This document shows positions 4,489 to 51,301 of a stretch of DNA of 64,000 nt, in pieces (positions within the stretch are counted from its first letter, which is position 1; every line of letters starts with the position of its first letter). A program made the position numbers and the translations under genes. The notes under the pieces are model-generated. The model was given only the letters and a program-made list of their open reading frames with translations, had not been told where the DNA came from and ran no database searches. The stretch spans positions 25,989 to 89,988 of the IMG/VR virus record IMGVR_UViG_3300012933_000371. One strand, 5' to 3'. Source of the DNA: a virus (lineage: Duplodnaviria > Caudoviricetes).

Positions 4489-7400
4489 TTACTTTGTTTG
4501 TACTGGTGATGTTGGTGGAGTAAACGCTGCGTTATATCGTGCAACACCTTTAGTGATTCTTAGATCCTGAAGGTATCCGTTGAAATCTTGACTACCTGTA
4601 TTTGGATTAGAGCCGATATATGTACTTGTTACTGCATTAAAGTTATATGTACTTGTTGCAGTTGCCACACTAACTCCATTGATATATGCAGTCATATTGC
4701 CGGCACCTGTTCCATTTCTTACTATTGCAAAATGTTGCCATTGACCAAGTTTAAATGAACCTGACGGGAATGACAATCTAGCAGTAGTTGCTTCACAGAA
4801 ATCAGCAGAACCTGCAGCATAAATGATGAGTAAGTGTTCGCCTGTAGTAGGTGTTCCTTGTGATAACACACGAGCATTACTAGGTAAAGAGCTGTGATAG
4901 ATCCAGCCTTCGATAGTAAAATCACCTGATCCCAGTGAATTTGACGGTCCTGGCTTAGTTAATACCACATCACCGGCGCCGTCAAAATACATACTCATTC
5001 CAGAATTTTTCTGAAATGGGTTGAATGATTTAACTGCTACTGTGTTATATGCTGTCAATGTAGCCGCATTAGTACTATTGTCTTTAAATCTATTAGATTG
5101 ACATGTTAGCAACTGTGTACCAGATACCGCAGTTAGTGGGCTTGTACTTGGCGTAAATGTCGTTGTATACAAACAAGTATTAGCAACTCTATGATTACTA
5201 ATATAACCGTGTGTAGCATTGACATTACCAGGACTAAATATTGCCCATGCACCTTGTGTATAAGTAGTTGCTGTTGTAGTAGATCCAACAGAAACTCCGT
5301 TAACCCACATTGTCATAAGATTACTACTATCTCTAGTAATTGCTATATGATACCACTGCCCTAATACAATAGATGATACCAAGAATGTTGAGTTAAATAT
5401 ATTACTTGAGCCATATAAGTTAGGTGATATTCTAGTACCGTCGTTATATAAAGCGAATCCACCATTAGATTGTACACCCATCAATGAACCTGCTTGCGGT
5501 GTAACCGCCCAATTTGCCCAGAATTCAACAGTAAAGGTTCCTGACAATGTAGTCCACGATGCCGAAGGCACAGTTAGATAATCGCCGTTACCATCTGAAA
5601 AATTACTATAATAATTACCAGCATAAGGATCTTGAGGCCATAACTTAGTATCGCCAACGGTTTCTAAGTCAATAGTTCCGTGTGCATCAATAATACCTCC
5701 ACTAGTACCTGTTAAGTACAAACTAGATGGATATGTAGTTGTATTTACAGTAGCTATTGCTGTTACTGGTGCTGCAGGCGGAGCAAAGTTAGAAGTATAT
5801 AACGTAGCCCCCTTGGTAATGCGAACATCACTCAAGTACCCGTTTGTAAATTCTGCAGGTCCTGAGGTATAGTACCCTCCTACCCATTGAATAGCCGTAG
5901 TCAAGTTATATGTAGTTGATGTGCCAGCATTAACCCCGTTAATGTATAGTACTTGAGTAGATCCAGATGTTCCTACCCATGCAATATGATTCCACGCATT
6001 TAGCACCGGCAGTGTGTTAGAACTAACCCAATTACCTCCAGCATCTCCAGCTAATAAACTTCCATTATTGAATCTAATACAGAATGTTCCTGCCGAGAAA
6101 CCTCCTGTTGTTGCTGTTACGATACGCTGATATCCACTGACACTTGTAGGATAAATCCAGAATTCTACTGTTGCTGAATTTTGTCCTATAATTAACTCCG
6201 AACTACTTGGCATACTTAAGTAATCACCATTACCATCAAAGTACATTGATCCGCCGGTAATTTCTGGCGAACATACTACGTTTTCGGTTATGGTTACTCC
6301 AGAACTACCAAACGGGTTAGTTGTTCTAGGGTATACGTTGCCAGTAGTTACTTGGTTAATTCTATTAACACTAATATCCTTAGCATCAGCAGACTGGAAT
6401 CCAAGATACGAAGTATTGTAGCCAAATGGGCTCCATGATTTTGCTATAGTTGCTGAACCACTTTTTGTGATTTGATAACCATTTGTACTATTATCTTTAA
6501 GATCTGCAGATTGACAAGTTAATAGAACAGTATTCGCTACCGCTGTTAGCGGAGCAGTACTTGGCGTAAAGTTTGTAGTATATAAGCCGGTTCCTTTGAT
6601 AATTCTGAAGTTACTTATATACATATTTGTATATGTAGGGTCGTCAGTTATACCAATTTTTGCAGTAGGATTTGAACAATTTTGTGTAAATGAATTGTTG
6701 GTATAATCCAATACACCATTTAAGTACCACTTAAGTACACCAGAAACTCTAACAACAGCTAAATGATTCCATTGATTACTTACAACAGTTGCTGTGCCGC
6801 CACCGTATGATGTGTTGGTATTCCAATATATTTGATTTGTTGATGAAACTTTTATACCAAAACCGCCAGCAGCGTCAGGCGATCTGCCGGCAGTATAAAT
6901 ACCATCATCACGGCCAGTTTGTATTCTATAGAACCAACATTCTATTGTGAAATCACCTGTACCTAGTGCAAGGTTTGAACCTGTTGCAGTTAAATAGTCT
7001 GAAGTTGAGTTGTTAAAGTAAACACTATTACCGTTAGTTGGGATTGTACCAACTGCAGCAATGTTAGTTCCTGAGCTTTGTGATACTTGTAGTGGCGAAG
7101 CAGGTACTGTGAAAGCGCCTGTATAAACACCAACACCTCTAACTACACGTAAGTTACTGATTGAACCAAGTAGTTCTGTAGAAGAATATCCTGGACTATC
7201 ACCTACAGTGCCAACTGTTAAGGTACTTGTTGAGCCAAAATCTTCAGAGCCTGTGTATGTGCCGCGAGCAACGCCGTCAACATATAATGTAGTGACTCCA
7301 GCTATTCTAACTACCGCTAAATGATACCAAGTATATTGGGCAAGACTTATAGTATATAAAATCTTAGTAGTACTGCCTATATTAAATGTTACTTGGTTAT

Positions 7401-40705: not shown

Positions 40706-40727
40706 AGTGTTTTTATTAAAGGATAAT

Positions 40728-41330
40728 ATGCCGTCTGGAATATATAGACTAACATTCGAATCTGGTAAATACTACGTAGGTAAATCCCTAGATATTGATA
40801 CTCGATGGAAGCAACACTTTAACAAGTTCGCGCTTGGCAAAGCAGCACGCCCTATGCAGCTTGAGTACGATAGCTGCGGGCTGCCCCAAACTGAAATAGT
40901 TTTTGAGTGTCATCGTGACCATATTGACATTCTTGAGGAATGGATAATTGATCAACTTAAGGGTCCGGATATGCTTAATACTACATATCCAGACTTAGTT
41001 CGTACTAAGGAAGTACGTGATTTAATTGAGAATAACAGAGACTTACTAAAACTTAGTACTTGGGATCACCTAAAACTTATATACAATCATACTCAAGCTA
41101 CGAACTCAGATAAACAAAAAGCTCAAAAAGCCTTGGAGCTAGTTAAAGCGTATCGATCTCGTGGCAGAATCATTGACGAAGATTATATAGAACTAGTTAA
41201 AACTACCCAACATTGCTATAATAAACTAGAAGAATCGCTTGAACTACTAGAGTTCAGAGAATACGAGCTTTTTAGACTAAGCAAAATGTCCTTATGGGAT
41301 CGAATATTCAATTATAAGGTATACGTATAA
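40728..41330 (+). CDS. Free-standing GIY-YIG endonuclease (homing-type)
   Basis: SGIYRLTF...YYVGKS.DI..RWKQH. Start reassigned to ATG 40728 after AAGGA. Antisense insertion in the late module. Confidence 0.8.
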   Translation: MPSGIYRLTFESGKYYVGKSLDIDTRWKQHFNKFALGKAARPMQLEYDSCGLPQTEIVFECHRDHIDILEEWIIDQLKGPDMLNTTYPDLVRTKEVRDLIENNRDLLKLSTWDHLKLIYNHTQATNSDKQKAQKALELVKAYRSRGRIIDEDYIELVKTTQHCYNKLEESLELLEFREYELFRLSKMSLWDRIFNYKVYV

Positions 41331-43144: not shown

Positions 43145-43334
43145 GTAAAAAATTTTTGAGCACATTGTTGCTGTGTTGTGTAAATTTGGTAGAATTAGGT
43201 ACAATAGGTACAATTGTGTGCGGGTTGTGTTAAATGGCACCCTTAGTGTTTTGGATTTGGTATCATATAGTTTACGTGGCGGGGTGCCCAGTAGCGTATA
43301 AGAAAAAGGTAGTCAAATAACCGCCCCCCGTGTG

Positions 43335-43370
43335 TACTTTTGTTTCTAAACACTTCTGCAAACAAAAGGA
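43335..43370. repeat. Inverted pair of the ACTTTTGTTT motif
   Basis: TACTTTTGTTT-N14-AAACAAAAGGA, homologous to 47738-47777. Confidence 0.7.
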
Positions 43371-43454
43371 TTACATAAGTAACCTTTCTTCTACTAGGGT
43401 AAACACCTAGAAAATAATTGTTTACATCTGCTAAATATCCCTTATAATAAACAC

Positions 43455-43565
43455 ATGACAACGAAAGACACTATGACTAAAAAAGAATTTATTGATGCTC
43501 TTGGCTTTGTGGCTTGTATTGCCCTGCCTTTTGTGCTATACTTCTATTTTGTGATGAAACCATAA
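43455..43565 (+). CDS. 36-aa membrane miniprotein, probably leaderless
   Basis: MTTKDTMTKKEFIDALGFVACIALPFVLYFYFVMKP; ATG lies 7 nt after TATAAT (43443-43448). Confidence 0.6.
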   Translation: MTTKDTMTKKEFIDALGFVACIALPFVLYFYFVMKP

Positions 43566-43587
43566 TTGATTTTTTAAGGGGAATGAA

Positions 43588-43911
43588 ATGACTGCAAAGA
43601 CTGTAAACTATACGGCAGACCAAGCCGCAAAAATGGTAGCTGACTATTTGGCTGGCGTGACTGTTGAAGCTATCGCGGCTGAGATGGGTAAATCTGCTCG
43701 CTCTGTTGTTGCTAAACTTTCACGCGAGAAGGTTTATAAGGCTAAGACTTATCAGACTAAGACAGGTGAAGCCGTGATTAAAAAAGATGCACACGCTGAT
43801 TTTATCGGCGAAGCATTGGGCTTAACTGAGGCTGATACCGATTCGCTGACTAAGGCCAACAAGGTAGCATTGGCAAAGATTGCCGATTTTATCAAGGCTG
43901 AAAAGAGCTAA
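43588..43911 (+). CDS. T5 A2-like DNA-binding protein, paralogue 1
   Basis: MTAKTVNYT...Y..G...IA..MGKSARSVVAKLSRE.VY pattern resembles my recollection of T5 A2; HTH-like. Confidence 0.6.
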   Translation: MTAKTVNYTADQAAKMVADYLAGVTVEAIAAEMGKSARSVVAKLSREKVYKAKTYQTKTGEAVIKKDAHADFIGEALGLTEADTDSLTKANKVALAKIADFIKAEKS

Positions 43912-43940
43912 GATTTTGGCAAGGGTGCAAGCCCTTGCTA

Positions 43941-43977
43941 ATTGATTTTGCCTATTGGCTTGATAGGCAAAATCAAT
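43941..43977. promoter_or_regulatory. OxyR-like four-tetramer box within a perfect 18-bp inverted repeat (43938-43980)
   Basis: ATTG-N7-CTAT-N7-ATAG-N7-CAAT versus OxyR consensus ATAG-N7-CTAT-N7-ATAG-N7-CTAT. Confidence 0.6.
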
Positions 43978-44011
43978 TAGACAAACCCAAGATTTGCGAT
44001 ATAATAAACAC

Positions 44012-44188
44012 ATGAAAACAAAAAACATCCCCCAAATTGTGCTTGATGCGGTAGCTAAAGATTTTAAATCTTTTCACACCGTGACTGCAACTGTTGCAAA
44101 TACGTTTATGGCTTCTGCTGGCAATCTCAGCATTTACTACATTGTAAATGCTGACTGTTCAGAAATTATTGATATTCAGGTAGATTGA
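44012..44188 (+). CDS. 58-aa hypothetical protein, probably leaderless
   Basis: TATAAT(44000-44005)-AAACAC-ATG. Confidence 0.65.
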   Translation: MKTKNIPQIVLDAVAKDFKSFHTVTATVANTFMASAGNLSIYYIVNADCSEIIDIQVD

Positions 44189-44189
44189 T

Positions 44190-44273
44190 ATGACAGACGG
44201 AATGCTCTTCATGCTTTTTATGCTTGGCGGCTTTGCCATTAGCTTTGTACTTCTTTTGTGGATTACAAAATGA
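44190..44273 (+). CDS. 27-aa membrane miniprotein
   Basis: MTDGMLFMLFMLGGFAISFVLLLWITK; ATGA-coupled to the next gene. Confidence 0.55.
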   Translation: MTDGMLFMLFMLGGFAISFVLLLWITK

Positions 44274-44629
44274 TTAAATCAGATACAATGCGACTCTTTG
44301 AATTAATCTTGCAAGATGAATTCAAATTAAAATCTAGAATCAATTTATCCAAAACGAAGGTTTTGCGATTTGATGGAGATTCGTGCATGGGTATGTATGA
44401 GGGTTACAAAATCTCTGCTAAGAAATTTAATCACAGAATCAGAATTGCAACTTCTGAGGTTAAAAACGACTATGACTTATTCACTACCCTAGCGCATGAA
44501 TATGTCCACGCATGGCAAATGGAGCAAAACCGCGACCTAGACCACGACACCGATTCAGGTTTTACCGCTTGGCGTAATTACTTTAAAACGTGTTATAATG
44601 TTGATATTGTATCTTTTGGAGCAAATTAA
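44270..44629 (+). CDS. HEXXH zinc metallopeptidase-like protein
   Basis: TTLAHEYVHAWQ...HD motif. Confidence 0.65.
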   Translation: MIKSDTMRLFELILQDEFKLKSRINLSKTKVLRFDGDSCMGMYEGYKISAKKFNHRIRIATSEVKNDYDLFTTLAHEYVHAWQMEQNRDLDHDTDSGFTAWRNYFKTCYNVDIVSFGAN

Positions 44630-44953
44630 ATGGCAACTATCGTAATGGATTCTCAAAAGGTTATCAACGCGGCTCAAATCGTAATTGATAAAATTATGGC
44701 TCACCGCGATGCGCGGGATGAAAAAGCAATCGCAAATGAAATGGCGACCCGTTCGCTGGGCTGGCGCGGGTTTTATTGGCCTACGCGAGAGCAAGCCATT
44801 GACGCGCTTGATCGTTCGGATTCTTGGGGCTGGCGTTCAATATACGCATGGGGCGATTATGCTCACGCTAAAAAGTTGCTTTTGTTGGCACAACACGGCG
44901 ACCCCGTTACACTAAACGAAGAAGATATTATTGTCTTGGCTAAGGGGCTTTAA
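44630..44953 (+). CDS. Hypothetical protein
   Basis: 107-aa ORF with GGAG SD, in a tight operon. Confidence 0.7.
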   Translation: MATIVMDSQKVINAAQIVIDKIMAHRDARDEKAIANEMATRSLGWRGFYWPTREQAIDALDRSDSWGWRSIYAWGDYAHAKKLLLLAQHGDPVTLNEEDIIVLAKGL

Positions 44954-44954
44954 A

Positions 44955-45092
44955 ATGTATATCGAAATGACTACTTTTGCTGTTCCTGCCTTTTTGGTAG
45001 CTGGGCTTAAATTCTTGGCTTTGGTTTCGCTTGGCTGGCTGGCTGTTGGTTTTGTGGGCGTGACTATTTATCAACTTTGGGGCACAAAATGA
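44955..45092 (+). CDS. 45-aa membrane miniprotein
   Basis: MYIEMTTFAVPAFLVAGLKFLALVSLGWLAVGFVGVTIYQLWGTK; ATGA-coupled. Confidence 0.6.
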   Translation: MYIEMTTFAVPAFLVAGLKFLALVSLGWLAVGFVGVTIYQLWGTK

Positions 45093-45382
45093 AAACTGTT
45101 TTCACTAAAAAATTCTGGCAAATTAAACGCGCAAATTGGCAAATTGTAAAATTCAAATACTTTTATTCTTGGCAAAACACGCTAAAATTAATTGTTGCAC
45201 TTGGCGTTATTTTGCCCGTTTGCATTATATTTGTAATGATACCTAGCTGGTTTTTTAATTTGCTAGAAGAATTTGTGCGGGAAAATATGCCATTTAAAGT
45301 TGACGAAAACCCAGAATGGATTAAAATGCAAATGAACGGACAAACCCGTGATTTTATGATGCAATTTAAAACATGGGAATAA
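45089..45382 (+). CDS. Single-TM membrane protein
   Basis: MKTVF start overlaps the upstream stop; central hydrophobic segment. Confidence 0.6.
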   Translation: MKTVFTKKFWQIKRANWQIVKFKYFYSWQNTLKLIVALGVILPVCIIFVMIPSWFFNLLEEFVRENMPFKVDENPEWIKMQMNGQTRDFMMQFKTWE

Positions 45383-45392
45383 GGGGCACAAA

Positions 45393-45554
45393 ATGAAAAT
45401 CAAAAAAGTTATTCGCACAATTACCGATGATTTTGGCAAAGCTGGGCGCGTTGAATATCATATTCTTCGTGATGACGGCTCACTGGTAGACGTTGAGCTA
45501 GATTATGGCACCGCATGGGTTCGAATGCTGGTTTACGAAAACTTGGATAAATGA
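45393..45554 (+). CDS. 53-aa hypothetical protein
   Basis: AAGGGG SD; MKIKKVIRTITDDFGKAGRVEYHILRDDG... Confidence 0.6.
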   Translation: MKIKKVIRTITDDFGKAGRVEYHILRDDGSLVDVELDYGTAWVRMLVYENLDK

Positions 45555-45690
45555 ATACTTTTGTTTCCAACTCAAAATGAGAACTTTTGTTTCTCATTTT
45601 GAGGCGCCAAAATTATACCACATAATTTTGGGGCTTGTCAAGGCTTTTCTGATTAATTTTCGCTATCGGGGCGATAGATTTTTACAATCG
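45554..45690 (-). repeat. Pre-early cassette 1: palindrome + GGCGCC + leftward TTGACA-18-TATAAT + OxyR-like box
   Basis: 13-bp inverted repeat 45571-45603; -10 at 45612-45617; -35 at 45636-45641; ATTA-N7-CTAT-N7-ATAG-N7-CAAT at 45652-45688. Confidence 0.85.
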
Positions 45691-45731
45691 TGATTTTGGC
45701 TTTTGGCCGTTTTTTGCGCTATAATAAACAC

Positions 45732-45857
45732 ATGAAAACAATTTACACACCAAACCAAAAAGCGCGATTCAATCGTTTTTGTGATCGTCACGGCCTTGCA
45801 TTTGCTACAATTACAGAGTATAATGCGGCTATCGAACAATTTTTCTCAGGGGAATAA
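45732..45857 (+). CDS. 41-aa hypothetical protein, probably leaderless
   Basis: TATAAT(45720-45725)-AAACAC-ATG; MKTIYTPNQKARFNRFCDRHGL... Confidence 0.65.
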   Translation: MKTIYTPNQKARFNRFCDRHGLAFATITEYNAAIEQFFSGE

Positions 45858-45859
45858 AA

Positions 45860-46336
45860 ATGGCTAAAATTAACCGCGTTGCAATTTACGACATGGACGG
45901 CACGATTGTAGATTCAAGCCACCGCTATCGCACAATTACTGATGAAAATGGCGAGCGTATAGATTTGGATTTTTGGCGAGAAAATGAATATCGCGCAATG
46001 GATGACGGATTGTTGCCCATGTTTTCACAATATGAAAAAGATTTGGCTGACGAAAATTGTTATACAATTATTGCAACTGCGCGGGTAATGAACGAACCAG
46101 ATTGGCAATTCGTAAACGAAATTTTAGGCGCTCCAGATTATTTTATTTCTCGCCCTGCGGGTTCTGATATTTCAGGCAAAACGCTAAAAATTAATGGCCT
46201 TGCAAAATTCTTTAATCTGGTAACTTTCAAAGATGCTGATTTTGTTTTTTACGAAGATAATATTAGCTATCTAAAAGCCGTTTGCGATAGGTTTAATATT
46301 CGCGGGGTTTATATCCCAAGCGTTCAAGGCCATTAA
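45860..46336 (+). CDS. HAD-superfamily phosphatase (PNK 3'-phosphatase / nucleotidase-like)
   Basis: YDMDGT, IATAR, K and YEDN: HAD motifs I-IV. Confidence 0.8.
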   Translation: MAKINRVAIYDMDGTIVDSSHRYRTITDENGERIDLDFWRENEYRAMDDGLLPMFSQYEKDLADENCYTIIATARVMNEPDWQFVNEILGAPDYFISRPAGSDISGKTLKINGLAKFFNLVTFKDADFVFYEDNISYLKAVCDRFNIRGVYIPSVQGH

Positions 46337-46470
46337 TACTTTGGTTTGCAATTCAAAATGAGAAACAAAAGTTCTCATTTTGAGGCGCCAAAATTATAAC
46401 ATATAATTTTGGGGCTTGTCAAGCATTTTGCGATTAATTTTTTCTATCGGGGCGATAGATTTTATTTATT
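46335..46470 (-). repeat. Pre-early cassette 2
   Basis: 12-bp inverted repeat 46353-46383; -10 at 46393-46398; -35 at 46417-46422; ATTA-N7-CTAT-N7-ATAG-N7-TTAT at 46433-46469. Confidence 0.85.
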
Positions 46471-46568
46471 GCATTTTTCGATTTTCAGGCGTTTTTGTTG
46501 TATAATCTTTTCATTGGTTCAATAGAATCAATCAGCGAATTCCGACTGTATCGGTAATTGGAAACAAA

Positions 46569-47267
46569 ATGGCTAAAAAACAATTCTTTGCGATTCTCGA
46601 CACTGAAACAACTATTGCCGATACTGTGGCCGATTTTGCCATTGTGATTTGTGATCGTGATGGCAAAATTTATAATCAATGCGCGGTATTGGTAAAAGAT
46701 CAATTTGACGCGCACGAATTATTTTATGATAAAAATGCCAAGGGTCTTTGGTCTTTGCAATATGCAAAGGACAAACGCGCAAAATACAACGATATGCTTA
46801 ATTCTGGTTCTAGAATGTTAGCTTCTGTTTCTGCAATCAATAACTGGATTAATCAAGCCATTGGCAAGTATAACCCAACTTTGACCGCTTACAATTTGGC
46901 TTTTGATAAATCAAAATGTGCAAACACAGGTATTACATTGGACGGCTTTTCTGATAACTTTTGTTTGTGGCAAGCGGCTGTTGGCAATATCTGCAACACT
47001 AAAAAATTCAAGCAATTTTGCCTAGAAAATCATGCGTTCAATGCCCCTACTGAATTTGGCAATATGACTTTTAAAACAAACGCCGAGATTGTTTGCGGGT
47101 TTATTAATGGCGGGTTTGTTGAAGAACCGCATACCGCGCTCGAAGATGCGCGCGATTTTGAATTGCCGATTTTGCGCGAGATTATCAAAAAACGCGATTG
47201 GAAACAAAAGGTAACACCTTATAACTGGCGCGAATTTCAAACCCGTGACCATTTCCAAGCCAAGTAA
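46569..47267 (+). CDS. DEDDh (DnaQ-like) 3'-5' exonuclease
   Basis: LDTETT (ExoI), AYNLAFD (ExoII), HTALED (ExoIII). Confidence 0.85.
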   Translation: MAKKQFFAILDTETTIADTVADFAIVICDRDGKIYNQCAVLVKDQFDAHELFYDKNAKGLWSLQYAKDKRAKYNDMLNSGSRMLASVSAINNWINQAIGKYNPTLTAYNLAFDKSKCANTGITLDGFSDNFCLWQAAVGNICNTKKFKQFCLENHAFNAPTEFGNMTFKTNAEIVCGFINGGFVEEPHTALEDARDFELPILREIIKKRDWKQKVTPYNWREFQTRDHFQAK

Positions 47268-47429
47268 TCTAGGAATGTAGGCCGAAAGGCCTACATTTAA
47301 TAAAATGAGATATTTGTGGGTTTTTGCTCTTTTGTTGCATTTATACAACGACAAAAAATTAAATGATGAATTTATTTTTGAATCGTGTTATAATACAATA
47401 ACGGTAGACGAAATTTATAGGGGTTAAAA

Positions 47430-47687
47430 ATGGAAACAATCGGCTGGCTGGGTTCACTACTTTTTGCGTTTTGCGGGTTGCCCCAAGCCGTGGAAAGTTA
47501 CCGCGCAAAAAATTCTGACGGGCTAACGTGGGGATTTTTGATGATGTGGTTTTGGGGTGAGGTGTTTACTTTTGTTTACGTTTTGCCTACCATGTTGTGG
47601 CCTTTGGTTTTCAACTATACCGCGAATTTTATATTTTTAGCAGTTATTTTGTATTACAAAATAAAACCCACAAGAAACAAAAGTTAA
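47430..47687 (+). CDS. PQ-loop / SemiSWEET-like membrane protein
   Basis: GWLGS...LPQA...S.GL motif, three TM helices, P...N in TM3. Confidence 0.8.
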   Translation: METIGWLGSLLFAFCGLPQAVESYRAKNSDGLTWGFLMMWFWGEVFTFVYVLPTMLWPLVFNYTANFIFLAVILYYKIKPTRNKS

Positions 47688-47695
47688 CACTTTTT

Positions 47696-47717
47696 AAAAA
47701 GCCCCGAAGGGCTTTTT
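47696..47717. terminator. Bidirectional intrinsic terminator
   Basis: AAAAAGCCCCGAAGGGCTTTTT; the minus strand forms GCCC-UUCG-GGGC-UUUUU. Confidence 0.85.
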
Positions 47718-47730
47718 ATTTTGCCAAAAA

Positions 47731-47826
47731 TAAAATGAATACTTTTGTTTGCAGAAATTCTTGGAAACAAAAGTATTACATTTTGGGGCGCCAAAATTAT
47801 AGCATATACTTTTGGCCCGTGTCAAG
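47731..47826 (-). repeat. Pre-early cassette 3
   Basis: 13-bp inverted repeat 47738-47777; GGCGCC; -10 at 47796-47801; -35 at 47820-47825. Confidence 0.85.
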
Positions 47827-47892
47827 CAAAATAAATTAACTTATTTTTTGTAGGGGTATTATTTTTGGGGATTTTTATTGTATAATCTTCAC

Positions 47893-48270
47893 ATGGACAA
47901 AACGATTTTAACCCGCTTACTAAAACGCGAATCGGCTATGATTTGGGATTCGCTTTGCGAGATATATCCCGCACTTGTTTTTCACGACTGCCCGAAAATT
48001 AGCCTTAATGGTAGATTATGGCGCGTGGCGGGTTTAAACGATCAAGCCGAAAATTCTATTGAATTGGGCTATAAATTCTTTGCACATAGCAAAAAATATG
48101 CCAACTATATGATTGATGTTATTTTGCCACATGAGATTATACATCAAGCCGATTATAATTTATTTGGCGAAAGCGAAAAAATTTGTGGGCATGGCGTAAA
48201 ATGGCGTGAAATTATGGTAAACTATGGTTTAGACGCTGACCCGTTTCATACAATGGATATTAAACGATGA
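47893..48270 (+). CDS. SprT-like zinc metalloprotease, probably leaderless
   Basis: LNGRL...AG, ILPHEIIH, HG..WREIM; TATAAT(47881-47886)-CTTCAC-ATG. Confidence 0.8.
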   Translation: MDKTILTRLLKRESAMIWDSLCEIYPALVFHDCPKISLNGRLWRVAGLNDQAENSIELGYKFFAHSKKYANYMIDVILPHEIIHQADYNLFGESEKICGHGVKWREIMVNYGLDADPFHTMDIKR

Positions 48271-48651: not shown

Positions 48652-48978
48652 ATGACTGCAAAAACTGTAAACTACACCGCCGAGCAAACTGCTAAGATTG
48701 TGGCCGATTATTTGGCTGGCGTGACTGTCGAAGCCTTGGCCGCTGAATTGGGAAAATCAGCCCGTTCGGTTGTTGCGAAATTGTCACGCGAAGGCGTATA
48801 TAAGGCAAAAGTATACAAAACCAAAACTGGCGCGGCTGTGGTCAAAAAAGATGCTCACGCCGATGCAATCGGCGCTATTTTGCAATTGAGCGAAAATGAA
48901 ATCGAAAGTTTGACAAAAGCAAATAAAACTGCGCTGGAAAAGATTTTTTCAGCACTTGCAAATTCTAAGCCAGTTTAA
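48652..48978 (+). CDS. T5 A2-like protein, paralogue 2
   Basis: Highly similar to 43588-43911; own promoter TTGAAA-17-TATAAT. Confidence 0.6.
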   Translation: MTAKTVNYTAEQTAKIVADYLAGVTVEALAAELGKSARSVVAKLSREGVYKAKVYKTKTGAAVVKKDAHADAIGAILQLSENEIESLTKANKTALEKIFSALANSKPV

Positions 48979-49671: not shown

Positions 49672-49989
49672 ATGATGACTAAAGAAACCAAAACAGTAAA
49701 CTACACTCCAGAACAAACTAAGGCAATTGTGGAGGCATACCAGGCAGGTGCTAGCGTGGAAACTATTGCCAAGGAAATGCAAAAATCCACTCGAAGCATT
49801 GTTGCTAAGCTGGCTCGTGAAGGTGTGTACCAAGCCAAATCTAAAGCCAAGGGCACTCAAGCTCCACGCAAATCCGAGTTGATTACTCAAATTGCTCACA
49901 GCATCGGCACTAACGAAGAGTTGATCGAGTCGCTTGAGAAAGCTACCCGCGAAGCTTTGGAGCTGATTGCAAAGGCTGTTAAACAGTAA
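49672..49989 (+). CDS. T5 A2-like protein, paralogue 3
   Basis: VNYTPEQT...Y.AG..VE.IA...KS.RSIVAKL.REGVY; promoter TTGACG-17-TACAAT (49607-49635). Confidence 0.6.
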   Translation: MMTKETKTVNYTPEQTKAIVEAYQAGASVETIAKEMQKSTRSIVAKLAREGVYQAKSKAKGTQAPRKSELITQIAHSIGTNEELIESLEKATREALELIAKAVKQ

Positions 49990-50980: not shown

Positions 50981-51301
50981 TTAATTCAATTTAGGGTCAG
51001 ATTTGGACTCCAAATTCTGTTCGATCATTAACAAGACCTGTTTATTGACCTTTTCTAGGCTTTCGAGTAGCTCTAGGTTGCATTGTAGCAATTCTGCAAT
51101 CCGTTCAATGTGTTCTGACTTTTTTGTTGGCACCTCACCGCGTTTGTTGAGGTACTGCTTTTTTTGGTAGACACCCAGTGAGCTGAGCTTGGCAATAATG
51201 CTGCGTTCTGGCACCTGGAACTGTTGAGCTAGTGCTTGGACGGTCACACCGGCTTGATAGTCTGCGATCAACTGTTTGGTAGATTCATTTGTGTATTTCA
51301 T
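50981..51301 (-). CDS. T5 A2-like protein, paralogue 4
   Basis: MKYTNEST...ADYQAGVTV.ALA.....ERSIIAKLSSLGVY...RGE...KK.EH.E.IA..L......LESLEK. Confidence 0.6.
   Translation of the reverse strand: MKYTNESTKQLIADYQAGVTVQALAQQFQVPERSIIAKLSSLGVYQKKQYLNKRGEVPTKKSEHIERIAELLQCNLELLESLEKVNKQVLLMIEQNLESKSDPKLN

Follow-up and report, generated by a model that had tools for sequence, protein, structure and literature searches.

Three copies of a conserved operator of ~40 bp, each composed of four alternating ATWG-type half-sites with one half-site per helical turn, were identified upstream of promoters in the genome of an uncultured virulent relative of phage T5. The phage is represented by the IMG/VR contig IMGVR_UViG_3300012933_000371 (89,988 bp, 40% G+C, ~85% complete by estimate), and the window analyzed here is the 64,000-nt stretch that covers bases 25989-89988 of this contig; positions given below are those of the window. 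Judged by motif comparison, the architecture and sequence of the operator are those of a binding site for a tetramer of OxyR, the LysR-type peroxide sensor. With moderate confidence, we propose that the element is bound by the OxyR of the host, or by a LysR-type regulator much like it, and that the bound protein modulates transcription of the putative pre-early genes. The identity of the binding protein, the sign of its effect and its dependence on peroxide are what we infer from sequence.

Control of phage genes by OxyR is known only from temperate phages and prophages, where it serves lysogeny or phase variation. OxyR sites on the takeover promoters of a virulent T5-like phage, at phased distances and between divergent promoters, would be new. 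If the proposal is true, the outcome of infection would depend on the redox state of the host, which would matter for phage ecology under varying peroxide and for the regulation of takeover before any phage protein exists.

Three operators upstream of promoters

Operator 1 (43941..43977) has the structure ATTG-N7-CTAT-N7-ATAG-N7-CAAT, operator 2 (45652..45688) reads ATTA-N7-CTAT-CGGGGCG-ATAG-N7-CAAT, and operator 3 (46433..46469) reads ATTA-N7-CTAT-CGGGGCG-ATAG-N7-TTAT; they match the OxyR consensus at 14, 13 and 13 of 16 positions, respectively. All three strings were found exactly where a first-pass annotation of this DNA had reported them. That annotation had also described a perfect TATAAT after each site, which is indeed present at 44000, 45720 and 46501, and a distance of 0-8 bp between the end of each site and the -35 element, for which we measured gaps of 0, 7 and 8 bp. 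It had overlooked that operator 1 forms the core of an inverted repeat of 18 bp without mismatches (43938-43980), with arms at 43938-43955 and 43963-43980 around a 7-bp centre. The centre of operator 1 (43959) is located at -53 from the predicted start 44012, and its half-site centres are at -64 and -42. Operator 2 is centred at 45670, 50 bp from a rightward -10 element and 53 bp from a leftward one, and operator 3, centred at 46451, has the same geometry. The half-site centres of these two operators are at -51 and -73 from their predicted starts, one helical turn beyond those of operator 1.

The 90-kb phage genome has three occurrences of the core CTAT-N7-ATAG, all at the operators, against 2.6 expected; for the extended string ATTR-N7-CTAT-N7-ATAG, 0.04 occurrences are expected. 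Shuffled genomes contained on average 0.99 sites matching the OxyR consensus at 13 or more of 16 positions and 0.11 sites matching it at 14 or more. The statistics from this single genome are thus moderate (P ~0.06 for at least three sites at 13/16 or better), and operators 2 and 3 are not independent because both belong to a duplicated 135-nt module (80% identity). The solidity of the observation comes from the placement of the sites upstream of promoters and from their conservation in related phages.

Conservation and helical phasing in related phages

From related phages, 73 viral loci encoding the 232-amino-acid (aa) exonuclease-like protein of this region (64-96% identity) were retrieved, and a profile built from the first matches was run on them. 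The element was found in 22 of the 73 loci, giving 25 unique copies with the three window copies included. Their consensus is ATWG-N7-CWAT-N7-ATWG-N7-CWAT or, with the flanks, two CGATWG-N7-CWATCG boxes 3 bp apart. The information profile of the 25 copies peaks at the tetramers and the flanking G/C positions, while the spacers within the halves are merely A/T-rich, and the T-run of the element points in either orientation. The highest scores against the OxyR consensus among the relatives reach 15/16 (loci L016 and L064). The six central pairs are all complementary in only three of the 25 copies. Because CAAT often opposes ATAG or ATAA, the half-sites seem to be selected singly, which is expected of protein binding and not of a hairpin.

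The distance from the centre of the element to the first base of the -10 element falls into three classes, 41 bp (5 copies), 50-52 bp (11 copies) and 61-62 bp (9 copies), which are spread over ~11 promoter contexts as grouped by downstream sequence. The classes differ by one helical turn, that is, the element is helically phased with the promoter. Nearly all copies in the relatives, like operators 2 and 3, also have on their left, at 10 nt, the -35 element of a leftward promoter with perfect consensus sequence. Two divergent promoters thus flank the operator at about equal distances, an arrangement of operators 2 and 3 that the first-pass annotation had likewise overlooked. At 4840-4895 of locus L017, the central spacer of a variant measures 16 bp rather than 7, about one helical turn more, reminiscent of the extended contacts that have been reported for reduced OxyR.

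The element belongs to a repeated module of stem-loop and promoter in intergenic DNA, and the operator has been gained or lost at orthologous promoters; of the four copies of the module core in the window, two have an operator. In these respects the module resembles the PeSL cassettes of T4-type phages (PMC2839356, PMC4122927), in which repeated intergenic stem-loops with an early promoter are swapped among close relatives, and both sit between small early genes. The present module differs in its additional leftward consensus promoter, in a slot that holds either an OxyR-type operator or unrelated palindromes, and in the phage lineage that carries it. In relatives (L005-L007, L018-L021, L026-L030 and others), this slot, ~100-150 nt upstream of the exonuclease gene, is occupied by other palindromes: TAGGGTAAACCCTA, which is common, GTAACAG-N10-CTGTTAC, CACAG-GGT-CTGTG and TTAGGATT-N7-AATCCTAA.

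Matches at bacterial peroxide-defence genes

A pattern derived from the phage consensus only, GATWG-N7-CWATCG-N3-CGATWG-N7-CWATC, was scanned against 596 Gb of prokaryote genomes, in which ~0.5 chance matches are expected. The sole matches outside repeats were three orthologous sites in metagenome-assembled genomes (MAGs) of Rhodocyclaceae, ~100 bp upstream of a gene for a 199-aa peroxiredoxin of the AhpC/TSA family. The centre of this ahpC site is 52 bp before a TAGAAT -10 element preceded by a poor -35, the same geometry as in phage sites 2 and 3. The other matches belong to a Prevotella repeat family and a Chloroflexota tandem repeat and are unrelated. A repeat family of GATAG-N7-CTATCG units, which matched the pattern through its periodic structure, was seen at six loci (L078, L081, L083, L084 and L086, from one Prevotella MAG, and L087), and at four of the six it lies within ~250 nt of the start of the fetched stretch.

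A looser four-tetramer pattern (at most one mismatch), applied to the same three Rhodocyclaceae genomes, revealed two families of sites besides ahpC, and every family adjoins a redox-defence gene. One lies between the gene for a di-haem cytochrome c peroxidase (ccp) and a divergently transcribed LysR-type regulator, whose best matches are the NCBIfam OxyR model (2e-64, below the curated cut-off) and P. aeruginosa OxyR (4x6g, 1.5e-77); the other adjoins a thioredoxin-reductase-like (trxB-like) gene. The reversed control pattern had no match in two of the genomes and one in the third. Given these matches at ahpC, oxyR-ccp and the trxB-like gene, the phage motif is that of the operator of a peroxide regulon of Betaproteobacteria. 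The Rhodocyclaceae genomes show identity of the motif, not the host of the phage. OxyR recognition is conserved among proteobacteria.

Comparison with known OxyR sites

OxyR recognizes a consensus that reads ATAG-N7-CTAT-N7-ATAG-N7-CTAT, and its sites have been described as two tandem 15-mers separated by an interval of 7-10 bp and as very A+T-rich (PMC5720770, PMC8787470, PMC3378865). The confirmed ahpB and ahpC targets of P. aeruginosa OxyR match at 12-13 of the 16 positions and contain ATTG, CAAT and TAAT (PMC5720770), so that the scores of the phage sites are equal or higher. Similarly, the half-site centres of operator 1 relative to its predicted start are close to those at E. coli oxyS, -66/-44 (PMC5002191).

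The phage element shares with OxyR operators the layout of four alternating tetramers at an 11-bp period, the overall dyad symmetry, a T-N11-A in each half, the A/T-rich inner spacers and a position adjoining or preceding the -35 of a sigma-70 promoter, on one helix face; the tetramers are its conserved part, and the same motif stands before bacterial peroxide-defence genes. Operators 2 and 3 further resemble the oxyR-oxyS region in being located between divergent promoters, one of which is predicted to give a short non-coding transcript in the phage. The element differs from the OxyR operator in that its third tetramer position is degenerate, ATTG/CAAT being commoner than ATAG/CTAT, in its conserved central CG-N3-CG, and in its occurrence at three distances one helical turn apart and on a virulent phage rather than a chromosome. 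The first-pass annotation had proposed that these are OxyR-like operators beside -35 elements and that the operons may respond to peroxide, and had left room for another LysR-type regulator. This cautious proposal is supported by motif identity, conservation and geometry, from which we infer the binding itself.

OxyR sites have been described on several temperate phages, namely in the mom operator of Mu, the pM region of lambda, the gtr locus of P22 and the Pf4 phage of P. aeruginosa (PMC2903704, PMC2909390, PMC3378865, PMC7549136). Common to these systems and, by our proposal, to the phage analyzed here is that host OxyR would govern phage transcription. Theirs, however, serves lysogeny maintenance, Dam-coupled phase variation or prophage production, whereas the element described here has no GATC sites and would act on the takeover genes that a T5-like lytic phage expresses first.

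Candidate binding factors and alternative explanations

A different host factor could read the operator, either another LysR-type protein or a tetrameric or dimer-of-dimers regulator that responds to a signal other than peroxide. Both halves are T-N11-A boxes of the generic LysR type, and at the outer positions ATTG/CAAT outnumbers ATAG/CTAT; the sole non-repeat bacterial matches, at ahpC, oxyR-ccp and the trxB-like gene, nevertheless represent the classic OxyR regulon, and we consider this explanation rather unlikely. The motifs of CRP, FNR, ArgR, Fur, NrdR, Lrp, MetR and H-NS do not appear to fit in spacing or half-sites. Among host factors, OxyR is on these sequence comparisons the best candidate. 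A phage DNA-binding protein might instead recognize the element as two adjacent dimer operators of 15-19 bp, in the manner of Cro/CI, and either switch on the cascade or shut it off as in T5. The candidates are four ~105-aa helix-turn-helix (HTH) paralogues, encoded at 43588-43911, 48652-48978 and 49672-49989 (plus) and at ~51002-51301 (minus), and a conserved protein of 249-252 aa encoded outside the window (G000:C1:2867-3610; also L106:794-1543), which has a weak match to sigma-70 region 4 (1.7e-5) and may be a phage transcription factor. Several observations would suit such a binder: the operator-less first operon encodes one of the HTH proteins directly upstream of operator 1, palindromic half-sites 22 bp apart fit cooperating dimers, and T5 offers a precedent, with a phage function that shuts off its pre-early genes and an A2 protein that is a DNA-binding dimer (bioRxiv 10.1101/866236). 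The distribution of the proteins lends this reading no support, though. All 73 loci have the HTH family, against 22 with the element, and the recognition helix of the family, RS.VAKL.R, is invariant in all paralogues and phages; a 93%-complete relative has both the HTH proteins and the 249-aa sigma-region-4-like protein and no recognizable element. The HTH family has a weak profile match to the GcrA DNA-binding domain (E 0.49), and its AlphaFold model (pLDDT 82.5) consists of two three-helix bundles with no significant match in the PDB, unlike a LysR DNA-binding domain. A phage binder would also leave the same extended motif before bacterial ahpC unexplained, and we regard it as unlikely. A phage-encoded LysR regulator was rejected: a six-frame search of five phage genomes for the LysR HTH domain (PF00126) gave only sub-threshold matches (13.7 bits), which fall in the 249-aa protein. 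Since no phage LysR HTH domain was found by this search and the HTH proteins are kept in the element-less relative, a host factor is the more economical binder.

Two further explanations dispense with a regulator. The sites could act as nucleic-acid structures, that is, as hairpin terminators, RNA-stabilizing stems or recombination substrates of a mobile promoter-terminator cassette. This would agree with a pattern scan that marks sites 2 and 3 as terminator-like (6-7-bp stem, 3-nt loop, T-run), with the strong folding of the perfect 18-bp palindrome at site 1, and with the repetition and shuffling of the surrounding 135-nt module among relatives. The predicted RNA folds of sites 2 and 3 are weak, however (-7.1 and -8.5 kcal/mol, z -1.0 and -2.7), and at site 3 the stem is not part of the minimum-energy fold. 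Full central pairing is confined to the few copies noted above, with the tetramers varying independently and not in a compensating manner; many relatives have an A-run in place of the downstream T-run; and helical phasing to the -10 element would be meaningless for a terminator. For sites 2 and 3 the terminator or hairpin reading was rejected on account of the weak folds and of stem pairing and a T-run that are not conserved, and structure as a general account of the sites seems to us quite improbable. Chance resemblance arising from A/T-rich intergenic repeats, with no function, could appeal to the near-random count of the 8-nt core, to two further 13/16 matches in coding DNA and to the duplication of sites 2 and 3. 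It is extremely improbable, as it does not account for the conservation of the tetramers across diverged relatives, the phased distances or the bacterial ahpC match.

A number of observations weigh against OxyR as the regulator. The outer tetramers are mostly ATTG/CAAT, so that three of the 16 consensus positions differ systematically, and the conserved CG-N3-CG of the central spacer has no counterpart in the OxyR consensus as published. The element can also be dispensed with: it is missing from orthologous promoters of close relatives, the scan of the 93%-complete relative found no recognizable copy, and scans of T5, My1 and Vibrio phage X1 found operators of this type not above the control level. 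Some element-bearing promoters have a perfect -35 (L064) and would not require activation. The Rhodocyclaceae matches are in genomes of 61-64% G+C versus 40% in the phage, and the large terminase had no match in the 401 genomes searched from the same bacterial order. Finally, peroxide-dependent expression of takeover genes has no obvious advantage for a virulent phage.

Proposed mechanism

If host OxyR is the regulator, host sigma-70 RNA polymerase would transcribe the first operon unaided once the DNA enters the cell, and an OxyR tetramer, most likely oxidized, would occupy the operators on the helix face of the polymerase. There the exonuclease gene and the operons of the small proteins and of the HAD phosphatase would be transcribed more strongly or, with OxyR in the reduced form, less strongly. 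At sites 2 and 3, the tetramer would at the same time stand 53 bp from the -10 element of the divergent leftward promoter. The series of distances differing by helical turns would then be a natural experiment on the upstream reach of the OxyR tetramer. A broader possibility, which we advance only tentatively, is that the whole virulent T5-like clade reads the peroxide sensor of the host through interchangeable operator slots between divergent promoters on the DNA that enters the cell first, thereby gating nucleotidase, exonuclease and small takeover proteins, and perhaps the leftward transcripts, by oxidative state; the slot, occupied by other palindromes in other members of the clade, would then be a plug-in site for different host regulators.

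Genome organization and promoters of the region

The large terminase of the phage shares ~49% identity with its counterparts in T5-like phages of Vibrio and Pectobacterium. On the minus strand, from ~43.1 kb downward, the window encodes the small and large terminase subunits, the portal, a protease-capsid fusion, the major tail protein and very large tail genes. From 43.4 kb rightward, the plus strand carries short operons of small genes encoding the HAD phosphatase, the 232-aa protein with its DTETT motif, two SprT-like proteins and small HTH proteins. This part is the analogue of the pre-early, first-step-transfer region of T5. The core early genes of both include a dmp-like HAD nucleotidase and small DNA-binding proteins, and both regions are repeat-rich. 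Besides the operators, the difference from T5 is that no homologue of the HTH and exonuclease proteins could be detected in cultured phages; among 50,697 phage records, no DNA or protein match to the region, the exonuclease or the HTH protein was found.

The first promoter of the region (43421..43457, plus strand; TTTACA, 16-bp spacer, TATAAT, leaderless ATG at 43455) is without an operator, and the genes it is predicted to drive are that of a 36-aa protein and the HTH gene at 43588-43911. The operon ends in a terminator hairpin (43916..43941, plus strand), the T-rich tail of which is the left arm of operator 1. Promoter P1 (43978..44014, plus strand) combines TAGACA with TATAAT (44000-44005) over a 16-bp spacer, and the ATG follows 6 nt past the -10 in a leaderless arrangement; the operon downstream comprises eight small genes (44012-45554), including a SprT-like protein and two membrane miniproteins. 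Promoter P2 (45696..45734, plus strand; TTGGCT, 18-bp spacer, TATAAT at 45720-45725, leaderless ATG at 45732) is predicted to drive a 41-aa protein (45732-45857) and the HAD phosphatase (45860-46336), a counterpart of T5 dmp. Promoter P3 (46478..46571, plus strand) has a poor -35, TCGATT, a TATAAT at 46501-46506 and a leader of ~56 nt, and is predicted to drive the 232-aa protein (46569-47267), at the start of which the DTETT motif resembles that of DEDD exonucleases. The first-pass annotation had called all three -35 elements non-consensus, which holds for P2 and P3; the TAGACA of P1, with five of six consensus positions, is not weak. Perfect TATAAT elements with an ATG exactly 6 nt on and no Shine-Dalgarno sequence are present at 43443-43457, 44000-44014, 45720-45734 and 47881-47895; leaderless mRNAs are therefore implied, and the arrangement is retained in many relatives.

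The leftward promoter at operator 2 (45612..45641, minus strand) consists of TTGACA, an 18-bp spacer and TATAAT with a TG, the end of its -35 being 10 nt from the operator; the one at operator 3 (46393..46422, minus strand) is likewise of perfect consensus. Altogether, four leftward promoters of this composition were observed on the minus strand (45641-45612, 46422-46393, 47825-47796 and 49102-49073), and they are directed into a long hairpin that closes the preceding plus-strand operon at its 3' end. These promoters are conserved in relatives, where the GCGCC...GGGGC stem that holds the -10 element shows compensating changes. The copies of the long hairpin at 45571-45602 and 46353-46384 are 100% complementary to each other, and the loop is therefore inverted between the modules (CTTTTGT versus ACAAAAG). 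The motif ACTTTTGTTT / AAACAAAAGT is strongly over-represented in 43330-47780, where it occurs in hairpin loops, after stop codons and inside coding sequence (47201, 47562). Among the packaging genes, a 207-aa open reading frame on the opposite strand (40707-41330, plus) contains a GIY-YIG nuclease domain and probably encodes a homing endonuclease.

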